From a bacterium (lineage in GTDB: Bacteria > Patescibacteriota > Microgenomatia > Daviesbacterales > UBA10151), in assembly GCA_021790255.1 (NCBI GenBank), contig JAJYIE010000002.1:413-64412 (forward strand): a stretch of 64,000 nt of DNA, in the 5' to 3' direction. Under the pieces are notes generated by a model. That model saw only the letters and a list, made by a program, of their open reading frames with translations, was not told the origin of the DNA and did no database searches. Below, in pieces: positions 34,607 through 48,168 of this stretch (positions within the stretch are counted from its first letter, which is position 1; the number at the start of each line of letters is the position of its first letter). Both the position numbers and the translations under genes were made by a program.

Positions 34607-35550
34607 TGGCGGAAGATGCTGAGTTCAAAGAACAAATAACTGAACGCATTCCTCACATAAAAGTTGATCGGAACACGGAAGAGGAGGTTGAGCTGTTTTA
34701 CGAATTTACCGATCCGATAAAGTTAATGCCTTTTCGCCAGGCAGTTTTCCATACTTATCCGGAACTGAAAAAATTAGTAGATGGGTTAAGCCGTAAGGAA
34801 GAAAAACCAGTGATTGAGCAGTTTGTGGAAAATTATTTGCAGGTACACCAGGCTGAGTTTGACCAAATTATGGCGGAGCAACAAAGCCTTTTGGACGAAA
34901 GGGGGCAGGGAGCGTTGGCGGAGTTGGCTAAACTGATGGACTACCACTGGCTGAACAATGCCAATGATTATCGGGCCGTTCCAACTATTTTGCCGGTTTC
35001 GCCTTTTGGTGAAAATGTTTTCTTTCCTTCAATATTGGCGTTGCGGGATCATTGGGGCCTGGAAGATTTTTTATCAATCGGGGTTCATGAAATTTCCCAT
35101 ATGATTTTATTTGATCTTTTAAAAAATGATTATCCCGATCTTTATCTGGTTAGACATTCCAGTCCTGCTATAAATACTTTAAAAGAAGCTCTGGCGCCGG
35201 TAGTAATGAATCAATCACCTTTGAAGGATTATATAAACTTCAGCAATTACCCCAATGGTTATGTCGGCAATCCAAATTTAGCCTTAATTTTCGTCCGGGA
35301 GGCCCAGGAAAAACCCACCCAGATTACGCAGTACCTACAAGATTTATATGAAAGGATGCACCAGGACAAAAAGAAATTTCCGGAGATTATGAAGGCCATG
35401 TTTGATAAGATGTTACCCCTGGAGGATGAGTTTGATAAAAAGCAGGATTTATGGAATAAATACGGCCGCTTTGACGGATCCGGAGAAATTTGTCTTGCTG
35501 ATGAGGAAGCAGAAAAGGAATACTGTCAGCCGATTAAACTACCAGAGTGA
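34606..35550 (+). CDS. Hypothetical protein with HExxH motif (IGVHEISHMI), start overlapping the ABC transporter stop
   Basis: ORF with an ATGA overlap to the upstream gene. Single HExxH. No TM. Confidence 0.45.
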   Translation: MAEDAEFKEQITERIPHIKVDRNTEEEVELFYEFTDPIKLMPFRQAVFHTYPELKKLVDGLSRKEEKPVIEQFVENYLQVHQAEFDQIMAEQQSLLDERGQGALAELAKLMDYHWLNNANDYRAVPTILPVSPFGENVFFPSILALRDHWGLEDFLSIGVHEISHMILFDLLKNDYPDLYLVRHSSPAINTLKEALAPVVMNQSPLKDYINFSNYPNGYVGNPNLALIFVREAQEKPTQITQYLQDLYERMHQDKKKFPEIMKAMFDKMLPLEDEFDKKQDLWNKYGRFDGSGEICLADEEAEKEYCQPIKLPE

Positions 35551-35599
35551 TAGGATCGAGTCATTGTTAATCCCCGGAAAAACTGCTAATAATAAATTA

Positions 35600-37297
35600 A
35601 TGCCCGATAATTTTGATCATCTTCGTGTGGCTTATTTCTCCATGGAAGTTATGCTGCAAAGCGGCATCCCCACTTATGCCGGGGGTTTGGGTATTTTAGC
35701 CGGTGATCTGCTGCGCTCCTGTGCCGACATGCATATTCCGGTAGCCGGAGTAACCCTGGTTTATTCCGGCAGTACTTTCAAACAAATTATCAACACTGAC
35801 GGCACACAATCGTTTGAGGAATCGGACTGGCAGAAGATGGATTATTTAACCAAGCTGCCGGAAAAAATTGAAATTACCATTCAGGGCTCCCGGGTGGTGG
35901 TAGGCTGCTGGCGGTATGATTTTGTCGGCGAAGACGAGTTTGTGGTGCCGGTGTACCTTTTAGACACTGATTTTCCGGAAAACGAACAGTGGGCGCGCAA
36001 TCTGACCAAGGCGCTTTACGGTGGTGACGGCAGCGTCCGTTTGGGCCAGGAAATTTTACTGGGTGTAGGCGGCGTTAAAATGCTCAAAGCCTTGGGCTAT
36101 AAAGATATTCAGACTTACCACATGAATGAGGGTCACTCAGCCTTCGTCCCACTGGCCCTTCTGCCTGATTATGACTTTAAAGATGACGCCGTCAGACAAA
36201 AATGCGCTTTTACCACTCATACGCCTGTGCCGGAGGGGCACGACCATTTCCCTTATGATTTTGCCCAAAAGCTGGCGGGCAATATTTTACCCTGGCATAT
36301 TAAAAAAATTGCCACGGAGTCTTCACTCAGCATGACGGATTTGGCAATGAACATGAGTAAGACTACCCTGGCTGTTTCCCGGAAGCACCAAAAAGTTACC
36401 CAGGCAATGTTCCCCGGCCACAATATCGATTATATTACCAACGGCGTCCATCATTTAACCTGGACAGCACCTGTGTTTCAGAATGTTTATAACCGATATC
36501 TGTCTGGTTGGGATAAGGATCCGAAACTCCTGAAAGAGGCACCGGAGAAAATTCCCGATGATGCCCTCTGGAATGCTCACCAGGACAGCAAGCGTGAGCT
36601 GATAAATTATGTCAATAAACACTTAACTTCGGTGATGTTTCCGTTTGAAAAGCCGCAGCCTGATGAATATTTTGACATGGATACACTGACCGTCGCTCTT
36701 GCTCGCCGGCCGGTGGCCTATAAACGGCCGCTGCTTCTCTACTCAGATTTGGAGCGGTTTATCAGGATTGGTGTCGGGCGGATCCAGATTATCCAATGCG
36801 GGAAGTCGCATCCCAATGATGATATCAGCCAGGGGTTTGTCCAGGAAATTGTCCGCATTTCCAAGAAGCTGCGGACGATTTTAAAGATAACTTATTTGGA
36901 AAATTATTCTCCGAAAATTGCCCGGATGCTGGTGTTTGGCTCAGATGTTTGGTTGAATACCCCGCGCCGGCCCCTGGAAGCTTCGGGAACTTCTGGGATG
37001 AAGGCAGCCTTAAACGGTGTCATCAACTTTTCAGTCCTGGACGGCTGGTGGATTGAAGGAGCAAAGATGGATCCCCTGGCCGGTTTTTCCATTGGCCTTA
37101 GTGATGACAGCGTGACTCCTTCCAACGATGATGCGGCCGATGCGGATGATTTGTATAACCGTCTGGAGAATGAGATTATCCCCATGTATTATGACCACCG
37201 TTCGGAGTGGATCATGCGGATGAAGCATGCTATTACTCTGGGTGCATACTTTAATACCCACCGCTGCGTAAAGCAATATTTGGAAAAAGCCTGGTAA
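35600..37297 (+). CDS. glgP: Alpha-glucan (glycogen/maltodextrin) phosphorylase, GT35-like short form
   Basis: N-terminus AYFSMEVMLQSGIPTYAGGLGILAGD and a C-terminal TSGMKAALNGV PLP-Lys region. The internal ATG is chosen because the track start at 35402 overlaps the upstream gene. Confidence 0.7.
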   Translation: MPDNFDHLRVAYFSMEVMLQSGIPTYAGGLGILAGDLLRSCADMHIPVAGVTLVYSGSTFKQIINTDGTQSFEESDWQKMDYLTKLPEKIEITIQGSRVVVGCWRYDFVGEDEFVVPVYLLDTDFPENEQWARNLTKALYGGDGSVRLGQEILLGVGGVKMLKALGYKDIQTYHMNEGHSAFVPLALLPDYDFKDDAVRQKCAFTTHTPVPEGHDHFPYDFAQKLAGNILPWHIKKIATESSLSMTDLAMNMSKTTLAVSRKHQKVTQAMFPGHNIDYITNGVHHLTWTAPVFQNVYNRYLSGWDKDPKLLKEAPEKIPDDALWNAHQDSKRELINYVNKHLTSVMFPFEKPQPDEYFDMDTLTVALARRPVAYKRPLLLYSDLERFIRIGVGRIQIIQCGKSHPNDDISQGFVQEIVRISKKLRTILKITYLENYSPKIARMLVFGSDVWLNTPRRPLEASGTSGMKAALNGVINFSVLDGWWIEGAKMDPLAGFSIGLSDDSVTPSNDDAADADDLYNRLENEIIPMYYDHRSEWIMRMKHAITLGAYFNTHRCVKQYLEKAW

Positions 37298-37346
37298 AAT
37301 ACCATGTCATCTCGCCGAAGGGCGGGGTCCAATTAAAATGTCTACT

Positions 37347-38741
37347 TTATTTCTTTGCGGATTGGATGAGTTGGACAACTTCGTTTTTGGTTTGCTCCAT
37401 TTTTACTTTATCTTTAGCTTCAACGTTTAATCTGATTAGGGGCTCGGTATTGGAAGACCGGAGAGAAATGCGCAAATCCGGATAGCTGACGGCTACGCCG
37501 TCCAACGTGGAAATTTCCCCATCAGCATATTTTTGTTTGACTAGATCCAAAAGCTCCGGCCCGTTTTTGACTTCAAAGTTAATTTCGCTGGATTCAAAAG
37601 CCCGCCGGCAACTTTCGGCAATCTCCGATAAAGGTTTGCCTTCCCGACTCATAACTGCCAGGATAATTAAGATTACCGGCATTTGCGCTTCAGCACCGCC
37701 GGTAGCGGCAAAAAAATAATGGGCTGAACTCTCCCCTGCAAAGATAGCGCCTTCGTTTTGCAGTTGTTCGGTAATGAACGCATGGCCGACTTTAGAAACA
37801 GACAACTTCCCGCCCGCCTCATCCACATTTTCCCGGGCATTAATCAGATAGCGAATATCAGCAATAATCGTGGCCCCGGGGTGGGTTTTCAGAAGTTCCT
37901 TAGCAATAATTGAGGTAATAATTGACGGCGGGACTATCTGGCCATTTTCATCAACGATGAACATCCTATCCCCGTCGCCGTCCGGCGCCAGTCCGATATC
38001 GGCGCCGGTCTCCCGGACTTTATTTTGCAAATCAACCAAGTTTTTTGGCTGCAGTGGATCGGGTTGATGGGCCGGAAAATTTCCATCCAAGTTGAAATTC
38101 ATCCTGGTCAGCTCGCCGGGAATGTGTTTGAACAACTCCTCAACGTAAAGACTGCCCATGGCGTTACCGGCATCGGCAACAACTTTGAAAGGCTTAATAT
38201 TGGGATGGCCGGCTATTTCCAAAGCTTTCTCGGCCTCTTTTTCCAAAACGCTGCTTTCTTCGGTGACGCTGCCCTGTCCCGCCGGCGGCTGGACACCTTC
38301 TAAAGCCAGGCGTTTAATTTCATCAATGCCGGTGTTTTTGCCGATTTTCAGAACGCCCTTGTCAATCTTTCTGATAATTTTCATGCCGTTATACTCTTTG
38401 GGGTTATGGGAAGCGGAAATAATAAATCCGCCGTCTAATCCCAGGTTACTGACGGCAAAATAAAACGATGGTGTGGACAAAAGCCCCAGGTCAACAACCT
38501 GAGCGCCTAAGCTGATGAGAGTGTCTTTGGCAATTTGAAAAAGTGCCGGTGAAGATAAACGCATATCACGGCCCAAACCAAATTTAAAAGGTTGGCCGGC
38601 CGGATAATCTTTGGTCAGAAAGGCGAAAATAGCCTTGGTAATTTGTGAAACGTTTTCCTCGTTGATTTCAGTCGGATAAATTCCGCGGATATCGTAACTT
38701 TTGAAAATATTTTCCGGGATAGTCATAAACTTAGCTGGCAT
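37347..38741 (-). CDS. Phosphoglucomutase/phosphomannomutase (alpha-D-phosphohexomutase)
   Basis: FKSYDIRGI N-terminus, active-site SASHNPKEYNG, and DGDGDR metal loop. Confidence 0.85.
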   Translation of the reverse strand: MPAKFMTIPENIFKSYDIRGIYPTEINEENVSQITKAIFAFLTKDYPAGQPFKFGLGRDMRLSSPALFQIAKDTLISLGAQVVDLGLLSTPSFYFAVSNLGLDGGFIISASHNPKEYNGMKIIRKIDKGVLKIGKNTGIDEIKRLALEGVQPPAGQGSVTEESSVLEKEAEKALEIAGHPNIKPFKVVADAGNAMGSLYVEELFKHIPGELTRMNFNLDGNFPAHQPDPLQPKNLVDLQNKVRETGADIGLAPDGDGDRMFIVDENGQIVPPSIITSIIAKELLKTHPGATIIADIRYLINARENVDEAGGKLSVSKVGHAFITEQLQNEGAIFAGESSAHYFFAATGGAEAQMPVILIILAVMSREGKPLSEIAESCRRAFESSEINFEVKNGPELLDLVKQKYADGEISTLDGVAVSYPDLRISLRSSNTEPLIRLNVEAKDKVKMEQTKNEVVQLIQSAKK

Positions 38742-38816
38742 TTAATTCTAACAGACTTTTTAGATTTTTGCCGCCATTGACTGTTCGCAAAGTTTTCGGG
38801 TAAAATAGATGGTTGC

Positions 38817-39834
<1,018 letters not shown>

Positions 39835-39902: not shown

Positions 39903-40397
39903 ATGGATATTTTACAAAGTTTTGGCGTTAAGCCGATATTACTTTTAGCGCAGGCAGTAAACTTTTTTATCCTGCTTGTTATATTGAAGAAGTTTTTGTA
40001 TAAACCGGTCTTAAAGGTGCTGGATGAACGGCGCAGGAAAATTACTGAAAGCTTAAAGAATGCCGATGAGATTGAAAAACGGCTGGAGCAAATCGGCGAA
40101 GACCGGGAGAAAAAACTGCAGGAAGCCGCTAGGGACGCAGAGGAAATAATCAGGGAAGCTACACAGACGGCCGGGGTGATTGTGGCTCAAGCCCACGAAA
40201 AAGCCGCCGCCGATGCAGAAAAGATTATTGAAAAGTCCCGGCAAAGTCTAGAGCTGGAACGGGAAAAGCTGCACCAAGAAGTGCGCTCTGAGCTGGCTGA
40301 CCTGGTGGTGGCGGGTTTAGAGAAAGTCATCGGGAAAACGTTGACGGAAAAATACAAAAAAGAAACTGTGGAGAAGTCGTTGCATGAAATTGGATAA
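39903..40397 (+). CDS. atpF: F0F1 ATP synthase subunit b
   Basis: Single N-terminal TM helix followed by a long charged helix. Confidence 0.8.
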   Translation: MDILQSFGVKPILLLAQAVNFFILLVILKKFLYKPVLKVLDERRRKITESLKNADEIEKRLEQIGEDREKKLQEAARDAEEIIREATQTAGVIVAQAHEKAAADAEKIIEKSRQSLELEREKLHQEVRSELADLVVAGLEKVIGKTLTEKYKKETVEKSLHEIG

Positions 40398-40782
40398 AAA
40401 AACTAGAAAGATTATTGACCAGATGGTTAAAATCAGTTTTGATAAGGCGGGGCGGCTGGACGGCGCCCAGGCCAGAAAAAATGCCGAGCTTTTGGCTGCT
40501 CTTCCTCGCTGGTCAGCCATTGCCTCTATGAGTGAGTATCTGCACAGAATAAAGAGTGAAGTCGGAAAAACGACTTTGCTGATTGAGTCTCCCCTTTCCC
40601 TTGCAGCACCCCAGCAGCAAAAGATTCGGCAAAGTTTTTCGGATAAGTATTTGGTTAATGATGTGCAAACAGTAGTCGACAGTTCACTTTTTGGTGGTGT
40701 AAGGGTAAAATTAGGAGACATGGTCTTTGATGACAGTATCAGAAACAGGATTAACCAACTGAAAGGCGCAATTAAAGGCTAA
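40384..40782 (+). CDS. atpH: F0F1 ATP synthase subunit delta (OSCP), short 132-aa form
   Basis: C-terminal FGGVRVKLGDMVFDDSIRNRINQLK matches the delta C-terminal consensus. Confidence 0.75.
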   Translation: MKLDKKTRKIIDQMVKISFDKAGRLDGAQARKNAELLAALPRWSAIASMSEYLHRIKSEVGKTTLLIESPLSLAAPQQQKIRQSFSDKYLVNDVQTVVDSSLFGGVRVKLGDMVFDDSIRNRINQLKGAIKG

Positions 40783-40795
40783 TTAGAAATTTTCT

Positions 40796-42331
40796 ATGGC
40801 TAACAGCTTGATTGTCGATATTGAAAAACAAATTCAGGGTTTAAAAACTGCTGCTGTGGCGGAAAATGTGGGTACGGTAGTGGAGGTTGGAGATGGTATC
40901 GCCCGGATCGAAGGCCTTTCCGGGGTAAAATCCTCGGAAATGATTGATTTCGGAGAAGGGGTTTTCGGGCTGGCTTTAAATTTGGAACAATATAGTGTGG
41001 GGGCAATTATCCTTGGAGACTTTACAAAGGTAAAAGAGGGCCAGCAGGTAAAAACCACCGGCAGACTGTTGTCTGTTCCCGTTGGCGAAGACTTGGTGGG
41101 ACGGGTGGTGGACGCCCTGGGCAGGCCGGTTGACGGAAAAGGTCCGATCAAAACAAAAGAAACGTACCCCATTGAAAAAGTTGCCTCGGGGGTGATTACC
41201 CGCCAGAAAGTAACTGTGCCGCTTCAAACTGGTATCAAAGCCATTGATGCAATGTTTGCTATCGGTCGGGGGCAAAGGGAGCTTATTATCGGCGACCGTA
41301 ATACCGGCAAAACTACCCTGGCCGTAGACACAATTATTAACCAAAAAGGTAAGGGCGTAACGTGCATTTATGTGGCGATCGGCCAAAAATCATCAAAAGT
41401 AGCACAACTTGTGGCTACACTTGAGGAACACGGAGCAATGGACCACACCATTATTGTTACCGCTCCAGCCTCCTCCCCTGCTCCGATGCAATATATTGCT
41501 CCCTACGCCGGATGCGCTATGGGGGAATATTTTATGGATAAGGGCAGCGATGCCCTGATTATTTATGATGATTTGTCAAAGCACGCCTGGGCTTACCGCC
41601 AGGTTTCCCTGCTTCTGCGGCGCCCTTCTGGCCGGGAAGCTTACCCGGGAGATGTTTTTTACCTGCATTCCAGGCTTTTGGAGCGGGCATCCCGGATGAA
41701 TTCCGACTATGGCGGTGGGTCTCTTACCGCTCTGCCGATTATTGAAACCCAGGCGGGAGACGTTTCTGCCTATATTCCCACCAATGTCATCTCCATCACC
41801 GATGGGCAGATTTATCTGGAAAGTGATCTTTTTTACGGCGGCATCAGGCCGGCTATTAACGTTGGCTTGTCGGTTTCCAGGGTTGGAGGTGATGCCCAAA
41901 TGAAAGCAATGAAGTCAGTAGCCGGTAAATTAAAGCTTGATCTGGCGCAGTATCGCGAACTGGCCGCGTTTGCCCAGTTTGCATCTGACCTTGATCCGGT
42001 GACCCGGGCGCAAATTGAGCGGGGTCGGCGGATGACGGAAGTGTTAAAGCAGCCTCAATATTCTCCGGTGCCGGTAGAAAACCAGGTCGCAATTTTGTGG
42101 GCTGCAACCCAAGGCTACATGGATGATGTTCCGGTGGAAAGAGTCCGGGAATTTGAAAAAAAGTATATATCTCATTTACAATTAAAAGAGATGAAACTCT
42201 TGGAACAGATTTTGGAGAAGAAGGAGTTGACGGATGAGATTAAATCAGGATTGGAAAAAGTTACTAAAAAGTTCGGTGATGATTATTTGAAATCGCTGCC
42301 CAAAGAGGAGAAAGAGAAAAAGGTTAAATGA
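40796..42331 (+). CDS. atpA: F0F1 ATP synthase subunit alpha
   Basis: Walker A GDRNTGKT and the alpha-specific C-terminal region. Confidence 0.95.
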
Positions 42332-43155
42332 ACCCGGATGAACCCATGAGTACAGAGCAGGCGGAAAAAGATGGATATTGGCTAAAAGGTGGCGGCAATG
42401 ATTTGTTGAAAGGAAAGCCTAACTGGCAGGAGTTTTTCATTTCCTTGCCGGATCACCAAAAGGCTTTTGTCGACCACTCCGCTCTGCGCTACTTGGGATG
42501 TATGGATGAGCGGGATAAAGGGAGACAGGAATGGAATGCGTACAAAATCGGCTTAGGCGGAGCGGCGATTGGTTACACGGAAAGAGTACCGGATTTTTTG
42601 CCGAAGCAGAGTATTTTAGTCGGAACATCATCCCATCGGCGCAATTGCGGTTATGCAACTTTATTCAAAGAGGAAAATGGTTTGGTTAATGAAACGGTAA
42701 ACCAGGTGGCTGATGACCAGGCTAAAATTACTGCCGAAATGCTCGGGATTCCTTACCTGGGTGTAGTTGAAGATTATAATATGAACCCTCCGGTGAATTT
42801 TCATCCGGCTCGGGCGATGTACTATGACGGCGGTGGATATTTTGTGCCTTATCTGACCCCGGAGTTGCCGGAAGGGCTTTTAATCAGCCGTGGGATGGTT
42901 TCCAACTCTGAATATAGCCGAAGACTTGCTAAAATTGCTATGAAAATTGTTCTGGAACATGGTTTTAGTAGGAGGTTTACTCAGGATTCTCCCTTTTATG
43001 CAGTGATTGTAACGGAACCGGGGGTAGGGATTGATAAAGAGGCTGCTACCGTAGAAGTCAAGCGGGCAATTGATGAGCTGACCAACGAGATTGGTGGGGA
43101 GTTTAACGGACATCTGCCGGTGAAGGTGGATTATATTGAGAAGGTTAGTGTGTAA
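42328..43155 (+). CDS. Uncharacterised soluble protein (275 aa) embedded between atpA and atpG, with an ATGA start/stop overlap to atpA
   Basis: ORF in the operon strand. No TM segments. Contains [10 protein letters not shown] ... SSHRRNCGY (CxDxR / HxxxCG), weakly reminiscent of a beta-carbonic-anhydrase-like Zn site, though the spacing is off by one. Confidence 0.6.
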
Positions 43156-43226: not shown

Positions 43227-45552
<2,326 letters not shown>

Positions 45553-45821
45553 TGCTTCCCTGGAAATAATCAATTGTATATTTATCGTCTTCTGAGAGCA
45601 TCATGATTTTATAGTATTCCATGCCCTCTTTGGGCTGCAGGAATATTTGCTCAATCATTGGATCATCAGCAGGGATAGCTTTACTGCTGGCAGGAAGAAT
45701 CCCGTTCTTACAGGTAAGCGGCGCATCAAAATATGTAAGGGCTACTGTTTACCGTAAAACTACACAACAAAAGACTGCACTGATTTGTCTGCCCTGCTGA
45801 TTTTGGTGTAAGATTATTAAT

Positions 45822-46271
45822 ATGCACTGGTTGAGGCAAGTTTACGATTTTATCTACGGCGAAAATAAGGGAGTCTCATTTATTGTTCTGATCTCTTTTC
45901 TGGTAACTTTTATCATCGCCCGCTCAATCATTTATATGATGGACCACAATGTTTTACCCGATTGGTATCTGTTCATGGGCCAAACACATGTCCACCACTT
46001 AAACTACGGCATATTTTTGCTGTCAATTTCGGGCTATTTATCATTGGTTTTTAACGGGAACAAGATTACCAAATGGCTGGGGATAATTTACGGGGTAGGT
46101 TTAGGGTTGACCTTTGACGAGTTCGCCATATGGTTTCATTTAAACGACAATTATTATGCCAGATTATCTTATGAGGCCGTGGTGGTGATTGCGGCGCTAC
46201 TGATTAATGTGGTTTATTTCGGTGACTTATGGGAAAAAATATTTTATTTCATTGTCCGCCGGAAGGAATAA
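45822..46271 (+). CDS. Hypothetical 4-TM membrane protein inserted between atpD and atpC
   Basis: ORF with four hydrophobic segments and an HVHHLNYG motif. Confidence 0.45.
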   Translation: MHWLRQVYDFIYGENKGVSFIVLISFLVTFIIARSIIYMMDHNVLPDWYLFMGQTHVHHLNYGIFLLSISGYLSLVFNGNKITKWLGIIYGVGLGLTFDEFAIWFHLNDNYYARLSYEAVVVIAALLINVVYFGDLWEKIFYFIVRRKE

Positions 46272-46514
46272 TGATGATTACGTCTTCATCGGCGTGGCTA
46301 GCTGAAAATAATTTCCATTTCGTCCCGGATCAGGCTGGGATGGTCAAGAAAGTATTGCCAGTCAAAAAACCGAAATCATTATCCTGGTTCCACCTGGGAT
46401 CTTTTCGAAAAACATATTTTTAGTAATCGCTTAATTTTTGCGGGTTCCCTGATGACAGCAGAAAGGAATCCCAGCGAAGCATTGTTAAAACTACCTTAGA
46501 AGGTTAGCGTACAG

Positions 46515-47099
46515 TCATTTTGTATTGGGGCGATTAGCCAGGTGGCCAACTTTTACAGTGGCTTGGTTTTCCCTGTTAGCTTGTCCTTCGATGCGCATTT
46601 CTTCCAGCGTTTTGCCGCTGTTAGGATCTATTTTATCCCGCAGGTCATTTCTTTGTAAGTAGGTACGGATTATCCGGCCTGCCAGGCGAAACAAAGACGG
46701 TTGAGGGTGCTGCTCTTGGGTGGACGGTGATTTTTGATCAAACCGGTCATTAACTTTTTTAAGCCTGGCCATAATTTCCTTTTTTTCTTCGTCCGATGGT
46801 TGTTTGGAAGCAATGATTTGATTGATTTTTTCGTCAGGATCGAAACTCCTCGCCTCTTGGGCAGCAGCAGATTCAGTGATTGGGGGCAAAGACGACTTTG
46901 GGGTATCAGGGGGATTTTGCTCATGAATAGCGGCAGCAGTGGTATTGAAAAAAGTAGCGAGGGCCAGTGCCCCCCGGAGCATGCCGCTTTTGCTGAACCG
47001 GTTCTCCGGGGAAAAAGCCGGCTTTTTTTTAGTGCTGGGCGTAATGTTTATTGATTCATCTGCCTGGGAGATGTCCGGACCAATTTCGCTCATAAGCAT
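46515..47099 (-). CDS. Hypothetical secreted/disordered protein (possible signal peptide at MLRGALALATFF...AAAIHE)
   Basis: ORF with low complexity (P/S/E/K/Q). The true start may be the internal Met near 46982. Confidence 0.35.
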   Translation of the reverse strand: MLMSEIGPDISQADESINITPSTKKKPAFSPENRFSKSGMLRGALALATFFNTTAAAIHEQNPPDTPKSSLPPITESAAAQEARSFDPDEKINQIIASKQPSDEEKKEIMARLKKVNDRFDQKSPSTQEQHPQPSLFRLAGRIIRTYLQRNDLRDKIDPNSGKTLEEMRIEGQANRENQATVKVGHLANRPNTK

Positions 47100-47187
47100 C
47101 AGCCTTGACCGGCTGCCTTAAAACATAATATCATACAAAAGTAAAAAGTTAAAAGCAGTTTTGATTTTTGACTTTTGAAGAAATTCT

Positions 47188-47598
47188 ATGGCTACCTTGA
47201 GCTTTAAGATCGTTACACCCGAAAATGAGGTTTTTAACGAAGAGGTGGAGATGGTGACTTTAACTACCAGGGATGGCGAAATCGGCATTCTCCCTCATCA
47301 CACTAATTTGATGTCGCAAGTGGTGGCCGGTGAGATGAGAATTAAAAAGGGCGGCAAAGAAATTGTGATGGCCACCGGTTCCGGGCTTTTGCAGATGGCA
47401 GATAATAAACTAACTTTGGCAACGGATCTGGCAGAAAAGGCGGAAGATATTGATGAAAAATCCGTAGAAGAAGCAAGAAAACGGGCGGAAGCAGCCCTAG
47501 AGCAGACCCAAACTAATGAGGAATACGCCACAGCCATGGCCAGTTTGGAGAAAGCATTGGCGCAGCTTAAAGTCAAACGCCACCACAAAAGCGGCTGA
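47188..47598 (+). CDS. atpC: F0F1 ATP synthase subunit epsilon
   Basis: N-terminal beta-sandwich LSFKIVTPE...GILPHH plus a C-terminal helical hairpin. Confidence 0.85.
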   Translation: MATLSFKIVTPENEVFNEEVEMVTLTTRDGEIGILPHHTNLMSQVVAGEMRIKKGGKEIVMATGSGLLQMADNKLTLATDLAEKAEDIDEKSVEEARKRAEAALEQTQTNEEYATAMASLEKALAQLKVKRHHKSG

Positions 47599-48168
47599 TT
47601 ACTCTTCAAATGAAAGCTCAGGCGGTGTGGACCAAATAGGTATAGGCAGGTTTTTGTAACGCGGGTTGGGTACAGCTTGCGGCTGGCCGTTAACCTCAGT
47701 AATGTAATAAGCCAACCCCTGCAGCTTTTCTATCTGCTCATAATCAGAAGGCAGGTGTCCTGCGCGCCAATCATCATAAGTTAAAAGTGGCTCTGCTCCG
47801 GTATTAACCAGGGCATGTCCGTATTGCGGGTGGATGACTACCTCATCCCCCGGCCCCAACTTTACAAGCAGCACTTCGTCCACCATTTCCGGTGTCCATG
47901 AACCGTTTTCGTAGTGCTTTTTCTGCAAAATAAGCACAGCGTGGCCGGAAATGAGATGATATGTTTCATTAACCTGGGTGCTGTGGTAGTGGCCGAAGGT
48001 TTTCGGGTACTCATCACCGATTTTACCCGGTGCAGTGACGGTTAGATTAGCCCATTTATCCGGGGTGATTTCCCCGAAAACCCAGTAAGCCGGGTCAACG
48101 CCGGTGGCTTGCGGATCCATAAGGACTGGTTTTAGACCGGATAGTTCCCTGATTGAATTTAGCCTCAT
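47599..48168 (-). CDS. Cupin-type glucose-6-phosphate isomerase (euryarchaeal cPGI family), 189 aa
   Basis: TFGHYHSTQVNETYHLISG and HPQYGHALVNTGAEP parallel the Pyrococcus cPGI metal-binding cupin motifs (TKGHFH...AEVY, PPYWAHRTVN). C-terminal NPRYKN matches NPRWKK, and the length equals the 189 aa of P. furiosus cPGI. Confidence 0.75.
   Translation of the reverse strand: MRLNSIRELSGLKPVLMDPQATGVDPAYWVFGEITPDKWANLTVTAPGKIGDEYPKTFGHYHSTQVNETYHLISGHAVLILQKKHYENGSWTPEMVDEVLLVKLGPGDEVVIHPQYGHALVNTGAEPLLTYDDWRAGHLPSDYEQIEKLQGLAYYITEVNGQPQAVPNPRYKNLPIPIWSTPPELSFEE

Follow-up and report, generated by a model that had tools for sequence, protein, structure and literature searches.

A widespread, previously unannotated protein family with a predicted beta-carbonic-anhydrase-like fold, encoded between atpA and atpG in the F1Fo ATP synthase operon of a Daviesbacterales bacterium

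Gene X and the atp operon

The window analysed here is a stretch of 64,000 nucleotides from a bacterium of the Daviesbacterales (Patescibacteriota, Microgenomatia; assembly GCA_021790255.1, contig JAJYIE010000002.1, positions 413 to 64,412 of the forward strand), and it holds an F1Fo ATP synthase operon in which an open reading frame (ORF) of 275 amino acids, called gene X below, is wedged between atpA and atpG (42328..43155, +). X belongs to a previously unannotated family of proteins of about 250 amino acids that is widespread in bacteria of the candidate phyla radiation (CPR) and is also present in DPANN archaea and Chloroflexota. It is probably homologous to the beta-class carbonic anhydrases (CAs), among which it would be most like the single-chain forms, CsoSCA and the zeta class, but it falls outside the curated families. 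The start codon of X, ATG at 42328-42330, overlaps the TGA stop codon of atpA at 42329-42331, giving ATGA at 42328-42331, and atpG starts at 43227, which is 71 nt past the stop of X. An earlier note, made from the letters alone, had described this same-strand ORF, its overlap with atpA and a distance of about 70 nt to atpG, and all of this was seen again. Its description of the atpBEFHA and atpGD blocks as canonical was borne out by Pfam matches on the genes of a second, identical locus (L001) and by 42-84% identity to the operon of another locus (L002). In what follows, L-numbers are fetched genomic loci and P-numbers are proteins homologous to X. The features of the operon are these:

38777..38806, +: promoter-like site TTGACT-18-TAAAAT immediately before atpB, possible promoter of the operon (consensus scan, 10/12 matches; weak, such sites being present at chance number)
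38817..39554, +: atpB, Fo subunit a (72% identity to the L002 gene with PF00119)
39631..39834, +: atpE, Fo subunit c, 67 aa (84% identity to the L002 gene with PF00137)
39903..40397, +: atpF, Fo subunit b (60% identity to the L002 gene with PF00430)
40384..40782, +: atpH, delta/OSCP subunit (42% identity to the L002 gene with PF00213)
40796..42331, +: atpA, F1 alpha, 511 aa, its TGA overlapping the start of X (PF02874, PF00006 and PF00306 on the identical L001 gene)
42328..43155, +: X, cytoplasmic protein of 275 aa, unannotated family, predicted beta-CA-like fold
42499..42513, +: codons C58-M-D60-E-R62 of X (CxDxR), predicted first zinc ligand and Asp-Arg pair (conservation; hhalign to Can)
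42634..42651, +: codons H103-R-R-N-C107-G108 of X, predicted second and third zinc ligands with a one-residue insertion (conservation; hhalign to Can)
42802..42825, +: codons H159-P-A-R162-A-M-Y165-Y166 of X, conserved motif in the second, C-terminal lobe (conservation)
43227..44114, +: atpG, F1 gamma (PF00231 on the identical L001 gene)
44143..45552, +: atpD, F1 beta (PF02874, PF00006 and PF22919 on the identical L001 gene)
47188..47598, +: atpC, F1 epsilon, about 1.6 kb away from atpD (PF02823 and PF00401 on the identical L001 gene)

The L001 locus is a separately assembled Logan contig (SRR13170411) with identical genes in the same order, and a mis-join specific to one assembly is therefore unlikely. 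Judged by the gene arrangement, X has the marks of an operon member: it lies on the same strand as its neighbours, its frame overlaps that of atpA, its base composition is native to the window, a sequence scan of the interval between atpA and atpG found no terminator-like site or hairpin, and the arrangement is kept across lineages. Promoter-like sites around the operon were at chance level, 15 being seen in the consensus scan as compared to 13.8 expected. The protein has no hydrophobic window of transmembrane strength, in agreement with the earlier note. The window is otherwise ordinary chromosome, with gyrB, recG, pheT, thrS, a class A penicillin-binding protein and a type IV pilus ATPase.

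The detached position of atpC means that the F1Fo operon is split as well as interrupted. The gap between atpD and atpC (45553..47187) contains two ORFs unrelated to atp genes, one of 149 aa (45822..46271, +) and one of 194 aa (46515..47099, -), and neither has a match in Pfam or NCBIfam. Genes of sugar-phosphate metabolism flank the operon on both sides (35402..38741 and 47599..48168); they encode an alpha-glucan phosphorylase-like protein, a phosphoglucomutase/phosphomannomutase and a cupin-type glucose-6-phosphate isomerase (PF06560), the last being convergent with atpC. The c subunit does not have the residues of the Na+-binding signature (Gln32, Ser66 and Thr67 in Ilyobacter numbering), so that the F1Fo is probably proton-coupled.

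A family hidden from ordinary searches

X gave no match to Pfam, NCBIfam or the sequences of the PDB, and no CA model was found at E<=10. When 1.84 billion cluster representatives were searched exhaustively with HMMER, 222 relatives came out at E<=1e-3, 57 of them at E<=1e-10, and the best was 42% identical. A word-indexed search of 5.8 billion proteins returned X itself as the sole match, and with a profile it returned only 8 proteins; the family is seen only by the exhaustive search. Relatives looked up in their source databases are named 'hypothetical protein' or 'uncharacterized protein', with the single exception of a fusion named for its FliL domain. No recurrent Pfam family, and no CA family at E<=0.1, was found among 126 aligned members, and a comparison of the family profile with the PDB sequences was also negative. 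We found no paper on the family or on a CA-like gene in atp operons, and literature searches gave nothing relevant on a link between CA, the atp operon and CPR, or on Pro_CA_2.

Conserved residues

In the alignment of 126 sequences C58, D60 and C107 are invariant. H103 is present in 125 of them, H159 in 124, G108 in 122, Y165 in 116 and R162 in 91, and the positions conserved to at least 90% are H103, G108, H159, Y165, P181, G183, G212 and P222. The motifs of the family can be written C-[IM]-D-E-[GR], S-H-x-x-C-G-A, H-x-A-R-x-x-Y-Y-D-G, L-P-x-G-F and H-G-F-G. Both motifs pointed out in the earlier note are there, CxDxR with C58, D60 and R62, and SSHRRNCGY with H103 and C107. Its remark that the distance between His and Cys is one residue longer than in the beta-CAs holds for X but not for the family, as 125 of the 126 members have the canonical HxxC and X alone has HxxxC, with an extra residue at position 104. 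All the putative ligand and catalytic residues are kept in X (C58, D60, R62, H103, C107, G108, H159, R162, Y165, R188 and H211), and it carries both D60 and R62 of the CxDxR motif.

The proteins encoded between atpA and atpG, together with their close relatives, also share an N-terminal motif, W-x-K-[TS]-G-G-[DN]-D-x-L-x-G...F-Q-E (42328..42420 in X; alignment columns 35-70). The motif is missing from the more distant members and may be a clade-specific surface or interaction motif.

Predicted fold and putative metal site

The structure of X predicted by AlphaFold2 with the 126-sequence alignment had a predicted local distance difference test score (pLDDT) of 92.8 and a predicted template modelling score of 0.91; the prediction from the single sequence was unusable (pLDDT 39). 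The predicted fold of the family is of the alpha/beta type found in the beta-CAs, and the top three structural matches of the model are true CAs. This fold, obtained at high confidence with the family alignment, the 222 homologues and a GC content of 0.466 (0.471 at third codon positions), equal to the window average of 0.465, together argue that X is not a chance ORF.

The profile of the whole family was aligned with hhalign to a reference alignment of beta-CAs, made of can and cynT of E. coli and eight plasmid genes, since a search for diverse beta-CAs gave only near-identical orthologues of Can. The whole family aligned with P=6.4e-4 (probability 28%) and the N-terminal half with P=3.3e-4 (probability 38%), as compared to P=0.47 for the reversed control. 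The alignment places C58-M-D60-E-R62 on C42-S-D44-S-R46 of Can, and H103...C107-G on H98...C101-G. C42, H98 and C101 are the zinc ligands of Can, and D44 and R46 the Asp-Arg pair of the beta-CAs. The predicted secondary structure agrees with this placement of the ligands: C58 ends a strand (53-58), H103 ends another (96-103), and C107-G108 opens a helix (108-116). The resemblance to the zinc-ligand set of the beta-CAs suspected in the earlier note is therefore supported both by the predicted fold and by the alignment to the ligands of Can.

In the reading that we favour, which as a whole has slightly less than an even chance, the N-terminal lobe would have a metal site of the Cys-(Asp)-His-Cys type (C58, D60 with R62, H103 and C107), placed in the structure where the beta-CAs have their zinc. 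The second lobe, without ligands, would then make the single chain a 'pseudo-dimer', an architecture known from CsoSCA and the zeta-class CA. No sequence similarity to beta-CAs was detected in the C-terminal half of X. An internal duplication in X was also considered and dropped, the two halves having no detectable similarity to each other.

Several observations weigh against this reading, and they concern the sequence, the model and this particular copy of the gene. No sequence method puts X in a CA family: none of the 126 members matches PF00484 (Pro_CA) or PF20393 (Pro_CA_2) in hmmscan, and the hhalign probability is just 28-38%. A Foldseek search of the PDB with the model gave no significant match, the best CA having E 0.028. 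The geometry of the putative zinc site is a prediction from the alignment register. Position 62, the Arg of the Asp-Arg pair, is Arg in 53 of the 126 sequences and Gly in the other 73 (58%); all known active beta-CAs keep this Arg. X itself departs from the HxxC spacing of the beta-CAs (H103-R-R-N-C107), has the substitutions A109Y, F184L, L82G and G214S, and differs from the family consensus at 10 of the 34 columns of at least 80% conservation, as compared to a family median of 3. It is among the most divergent members, and its branch in the tree of the family is long. About 70% of the family is not near atp genes, and no ATPase genes were found near the loci from DPANN archaea. Because X fails the PF00484 and PF20393 models, and this copy also fails the HxxC spacing, we file it as a new and very divergent variant of the beta-CA superfamily.

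Genomic context of the family

The arrangement atpA-X-atpG was found in seven lineages (the window, P0002, P0003, P0004, P0005, P0009 and L041), whose X proteins are at most 46% identical. The frames are overlapping or nearly abutting in these lineages, usually overlapping, and for P0002 the arrangement was seen on three contigs from different samples. The search of related genomes that the earlier note had proposed thus shows that the arrangement is not unique to one assembly.

Loci were also surveyed with a degenerate DNA pattern (H.AR..Y.{6}F.{8}P.GF...R) in one genome per GTDB species. The survey gave 72 loci, 69 of them with a true family member. They come overwhelmingly from Patescibacteria/CPR (Uhrbacteria, Magasanikbacteria, Paceibacteria, Saccharibacteria, Gracilibacteria, Peribacteria and others), and a few from DPANN archaea or Chloroflexota. 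About 17-19 of the 69 species-representative loci are linked to atp genes. Besides the seven lineages with atpA-X-atpG, at least 12 genomes have the gene at another atp position. By our rough estimate for a genome of about 1 Mb, a gene placed at random would be linked to atp genes in about 1-2% of cases. The linked loci of the survey are:

Between atpA and atpG: L041
Directly after atpC (n=11): L010, L022, L027, L028, L049, L052, L058, L063, L067, L073, L076
Upstream of atpB: L044
Near the atp operon: L013, L024

Two more, L009 and L061, are cut at the block edge and have the downstream synteny typical of atpC-X. Homologues without atp linkage include P0006, P0008, P0012, P0016, P0151 and P0152.

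In a neighbour-joining tree, whose deep branches are unreliable, the atpA-X-atpG proteins form one clade and the atpC-X proteins fall into several separate clades. The single clade suggests one old insertion between atpA and atpG. The earlier note had taken X for an operon member and not a passenger, and the recurrence of the arrangement in seven lineages, with other clades after atpC or before atpB, speaks for this. As to its further idea of an accessory to the ATP synthase, the family is not unique to atp operons, and most of it lies elsewhere.

The other recurrent neighbours are a TIGR00375 PHP protein, a UvrD-like helicase-nuclease, DciA, RNase III and NusB, and these look like plain synteny. 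The commonest after the atp genes is the TIGR00375 protein, of about 450 aa and with a PHP domain, whose gene precedes X on its strand by one or two genes at 13 loci (L011, L014, L019, L032, L033, L037, L038, L040, L045, L048, L055, L071 and L078), often with RNase III and NusB downstream; this neighbourhood is probably lineage synteny. Neither in the window nor in the fetched loci was a canonical beta-CA or another copy of X found. At one locus a gene for a 120-aa Pro_CA_2 protein (PF20393, 'putative carbonic anhydrase'; L094:553-915, -) lies next to the gene of the X homologue P0006 (L094:1017-1763) in divergent orientation, so that two CA-like genes are neighbours.

Some of the loci have features of their own. 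A number of them come from third-party bins labelled 'uncultured Gammaproteobacteria bacterium' that have a CPR gene order (L009, L011, L022, L030, L032, L033, L035, L037, L040, L041, L065, L071 and L073), and the labels are doubtful because the order is identical to that of Magasanikbacteria and Uhrbacteria loci. The epsilon gene before X in a Parcubacteria locus (L010:748-993) encodes only 82 aa, with the N-terminal beta-sandwich domain PF02823 kept and the C-terminal helical domain missing. Another atpA-X-atpG operon has an extra ORF of 74 aa between atpG and atpD (L092:3664-3888). In an Aenigmatarchaeota locus two overlapping ORFs (L069:6365-7743, -) each match the family at E ~1e-64, which suggests a frameshifted or tandemly duplicated copy.

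Exported fusions in Chloroflexota

The members from Chloroflexota (Dehalococcoidales) carry a FliL domain (PF03748, E ~1e-19) on the C-terminal side of the X domain (L020:461-1882, L029:2-1270 and L043:1385-2959; P0007), and these fusions nest within the atpA-X-atpG clade in the neighbour-joining tree. At its N-terminus P0007 has a twin-arginine (Tat) signal and a lipobox (SRRELLRLFAAATALAAVSGC), and so would be an exported, membrane-anchored form. Proteins that take the Tat route are typically folded before export, often together with a cofactor, and the signal on this homologue therefore supports a folded cofactor protein. A flagellar link through FliL was considered and dropped, as the fused proteins are Tat-signal lipoproteins with no flagellar genes nearby.

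Comparison with known systems

As compared to the beta-class CAs (PF00484; for example Can of E. coli and the Porphyridium purpureum CA, 1ddz), the family has no similarity at the level of HMMER, often has Gly in place of the Arg of the Asp-Arg pair, and has additional conserved His, Arg and Tyr residues in its second lobe; the copy in the window differs from them further by its HxxxC. The beta-CAs are homo-oligomers, whereas X is probably a single chain that mimics a dimer. Single-chain forms are found in CsoSCA, the CA of the alpha-carboxysome (8thm, 9g4t), and in the zeta-class cadmium CA (CDCA1, 3uk8), and neither of these has sequence similarity to X. The His and Cys ligands are separated by two residues in the family and three in this copy; in CsoSCA and CDCA the spacing is about 10-11 residues. 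X is also much smaller than CsoSCA, and there is no carboxysome or diatom context around it. The Pro_CA_2 proteins (PF20393, about 120 aa) have motifs like those of the family, CIDFR ... HEDCGA in the L094 protein, and hhalign aligned the N-terminal half of X to that protein in the same register (P=1.1e-3), a weak profile-to-sequence signal. X is twice as long, however, with an extra conserved lobe, and no member matches PF20393.

CA-like proteins beside proton-translocating machines are known from other organisms. In cyanobacterial CupA/B-NDH-1 a CA-like module is coupled to proton-translocating membrane subunits, and in acid-secreting animal cells a cytosolic CA feeds the V-ATPases. DabA, a divergent beta-CA-like protein and former domain of unknown function (DUF), is linked both genetically and physically to a subunit that translocates protons, and in the DAB system the flow of protons drives CO2 hydration one way, that is, vectorially (10.1101/476713; 10.64898/2026.05.01.722082). 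The likeness to X lies in a highly divergent beta-CA-like protein that is encoded beside a proton-translocating machine and known first as a DUF. The partner is different: a rotary F1Fo ATPase, as judged by gene linkage, for X and a NuoL/Mrp-type antiporter subunit for DabA. X is not of the DabA type (PF10070), since no Pfam family matched it, and its neighbours are atp genes and not genes of the PF00361 type (DabB/NuoL-like). Like atpI, atpZ and similar genes, X is a non-core gene in an atp operon; atpI and atpZ are small membrane proteins encoded upstream of atpB, whereas X is a soluble, enzyme-like protein encoded inside the F1 block.

Proposed function and alternatives

Our tentative proposal, based on the sequence comparisons and the model and falling somewhat short of an even chance, is that X is a very divergent metalloenzyme of the beta-CA superfamily, co-expressed with F1Fo and carrying out cytoplasmic CO2, bicarbonate and proton chemistry in a CPR bacterium. 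X would bind zinc and interconvert CO2 and H2O with HCO3- and H+ in the cytoplasm. The gene would be co-transcribed and translationally coupled with the F1 genes, so that the level of X would track that of the ATPase, and the enzyme would let protons, bicarbonate and CO2 equilibrate rapidly on the cytoplasmic side of the ATPase, where protons are taken up or released. In a fermentative cell that uses F1Fo as an ATP-driven proton pump, X would supply protons from metabolic CO2, and in the direction of ATP synthesis it would remove the incoming protons as CO2. CPR bacteria nearly always keep a complete F-type ATPase despite having no respiratory chain; what supplies their proton motive force is recognised as an open question (PMC9166423).

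By analogy it can also be imagined that X docks on the cytoplasmic side of F1Fo and forms an energy-coupled, 'vectorial' CA/proton module, a rotary-ATPase counterpart of DAB and CupA-NDH-1, although we consider this rather improbable. ATP-driven proton export would then pull CO2 hydration so that bicarbonate accumulates, and in reverse, a proton removal that consumes bicarbonate would sustain a pH gradient for ATP synthesis in CPR cells without respiration. Most members of the family lie apart from atp genes, which speaks against X as an obligate subunit of F1Fo.

X could instead be an active metalloenzyme that has the beta-CA fold but acts on another small substrate (COS, CS2, a cyanate-related compound or other), with the placement in the atp operon reflecting co-regulation with energy metabolism and not a handling of protons or bicarbonate for the ATPase. 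Such an enzyme would fit the additional His, Arg and Tyr residues that the family conserves, and the absence of the Asp-Arg pair's Arg from many members. Its three closest structural matches, however, are true CAs, a proton machine is the one functional neighbour that recurs, one member (P0006) adjoins a putative CA of the Pro_CA_2 type, and no sulfur or cyanate genes recur nearby, so that we hold it to be unlikely. About as improbable as the docked module is a non-catalytic role, in which X, if only in this divergent copy, would help to assemble F1Fo, inhibit it or regulate it, while keeping the CA-like fold and possibly a Zn/Cys site that is structural or senses redox state. The translational coupling inside the F1 block, between alpha and gamma, would suit an accessory protein, as would the long branch of X and its departures from near-invariant positions, including the HxxC spacing; CsoSCA is a precedent for a CA-fold domain with a lost metal site. 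Yet the putative ligand and catalytic residues are all kept in X and are invariant throughout the family, also in members far from atp genes. The many genomes in which X lies away from the atp genes, and the exported lipoprotein form, fit poorly with a factor dedicated to the assembly of F1.

The position in the atp operon could, in addition, be a neutral outcome of conserved gene order, X being a passenger. CPR genomes are compact and strongly syntenic, the other recurrent neighbours look like plain synteny, and most of the family is without atp linkage. A passenger would not be expected at three or more distinct atp positions (between atpA and atpG, after atpC, before atpB) with the linked members in separate branches of the tree, nor would its frame be expected to overlap those of both neighbours in several lineages, and the insertion at the near-universal atpA-atpG junction persists down to about 35-46% identity. 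We consider this explanation very unlikely.

Significance

If the prediction of a divergent CA-like metalloenzyme holds, the family is an unrecognised branch of the beta-CA superfamily, undetectable by sequence models, widespread in CPR and present in DPANN, and genome surveys that use the CA models of Pfam or KEGG would miss it. It would add compact single-chain CA-like scaffolds to those known, including the exported lipoprotein version of Chloroflexota. What may surprise a specialist is both an enzyme-like gene fixed in the atpA-atpG junction and an unannotated CA-like family across CPR. The repeated recruitment into F1Fo operons, including this almost invariant junction, suggests that CO2, bicarbonate and proton chemistry is tied genetically to the ATP synthase. 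The family is a testable handle on the use of the F-type ATPase, the proton motive force and pH in organisms without a respiratory chain, and if the vectorial module were true, it would answer why fermentative CPR bacteria keep the F-type ATPase and where their proton motive force arises (PMC9166423).

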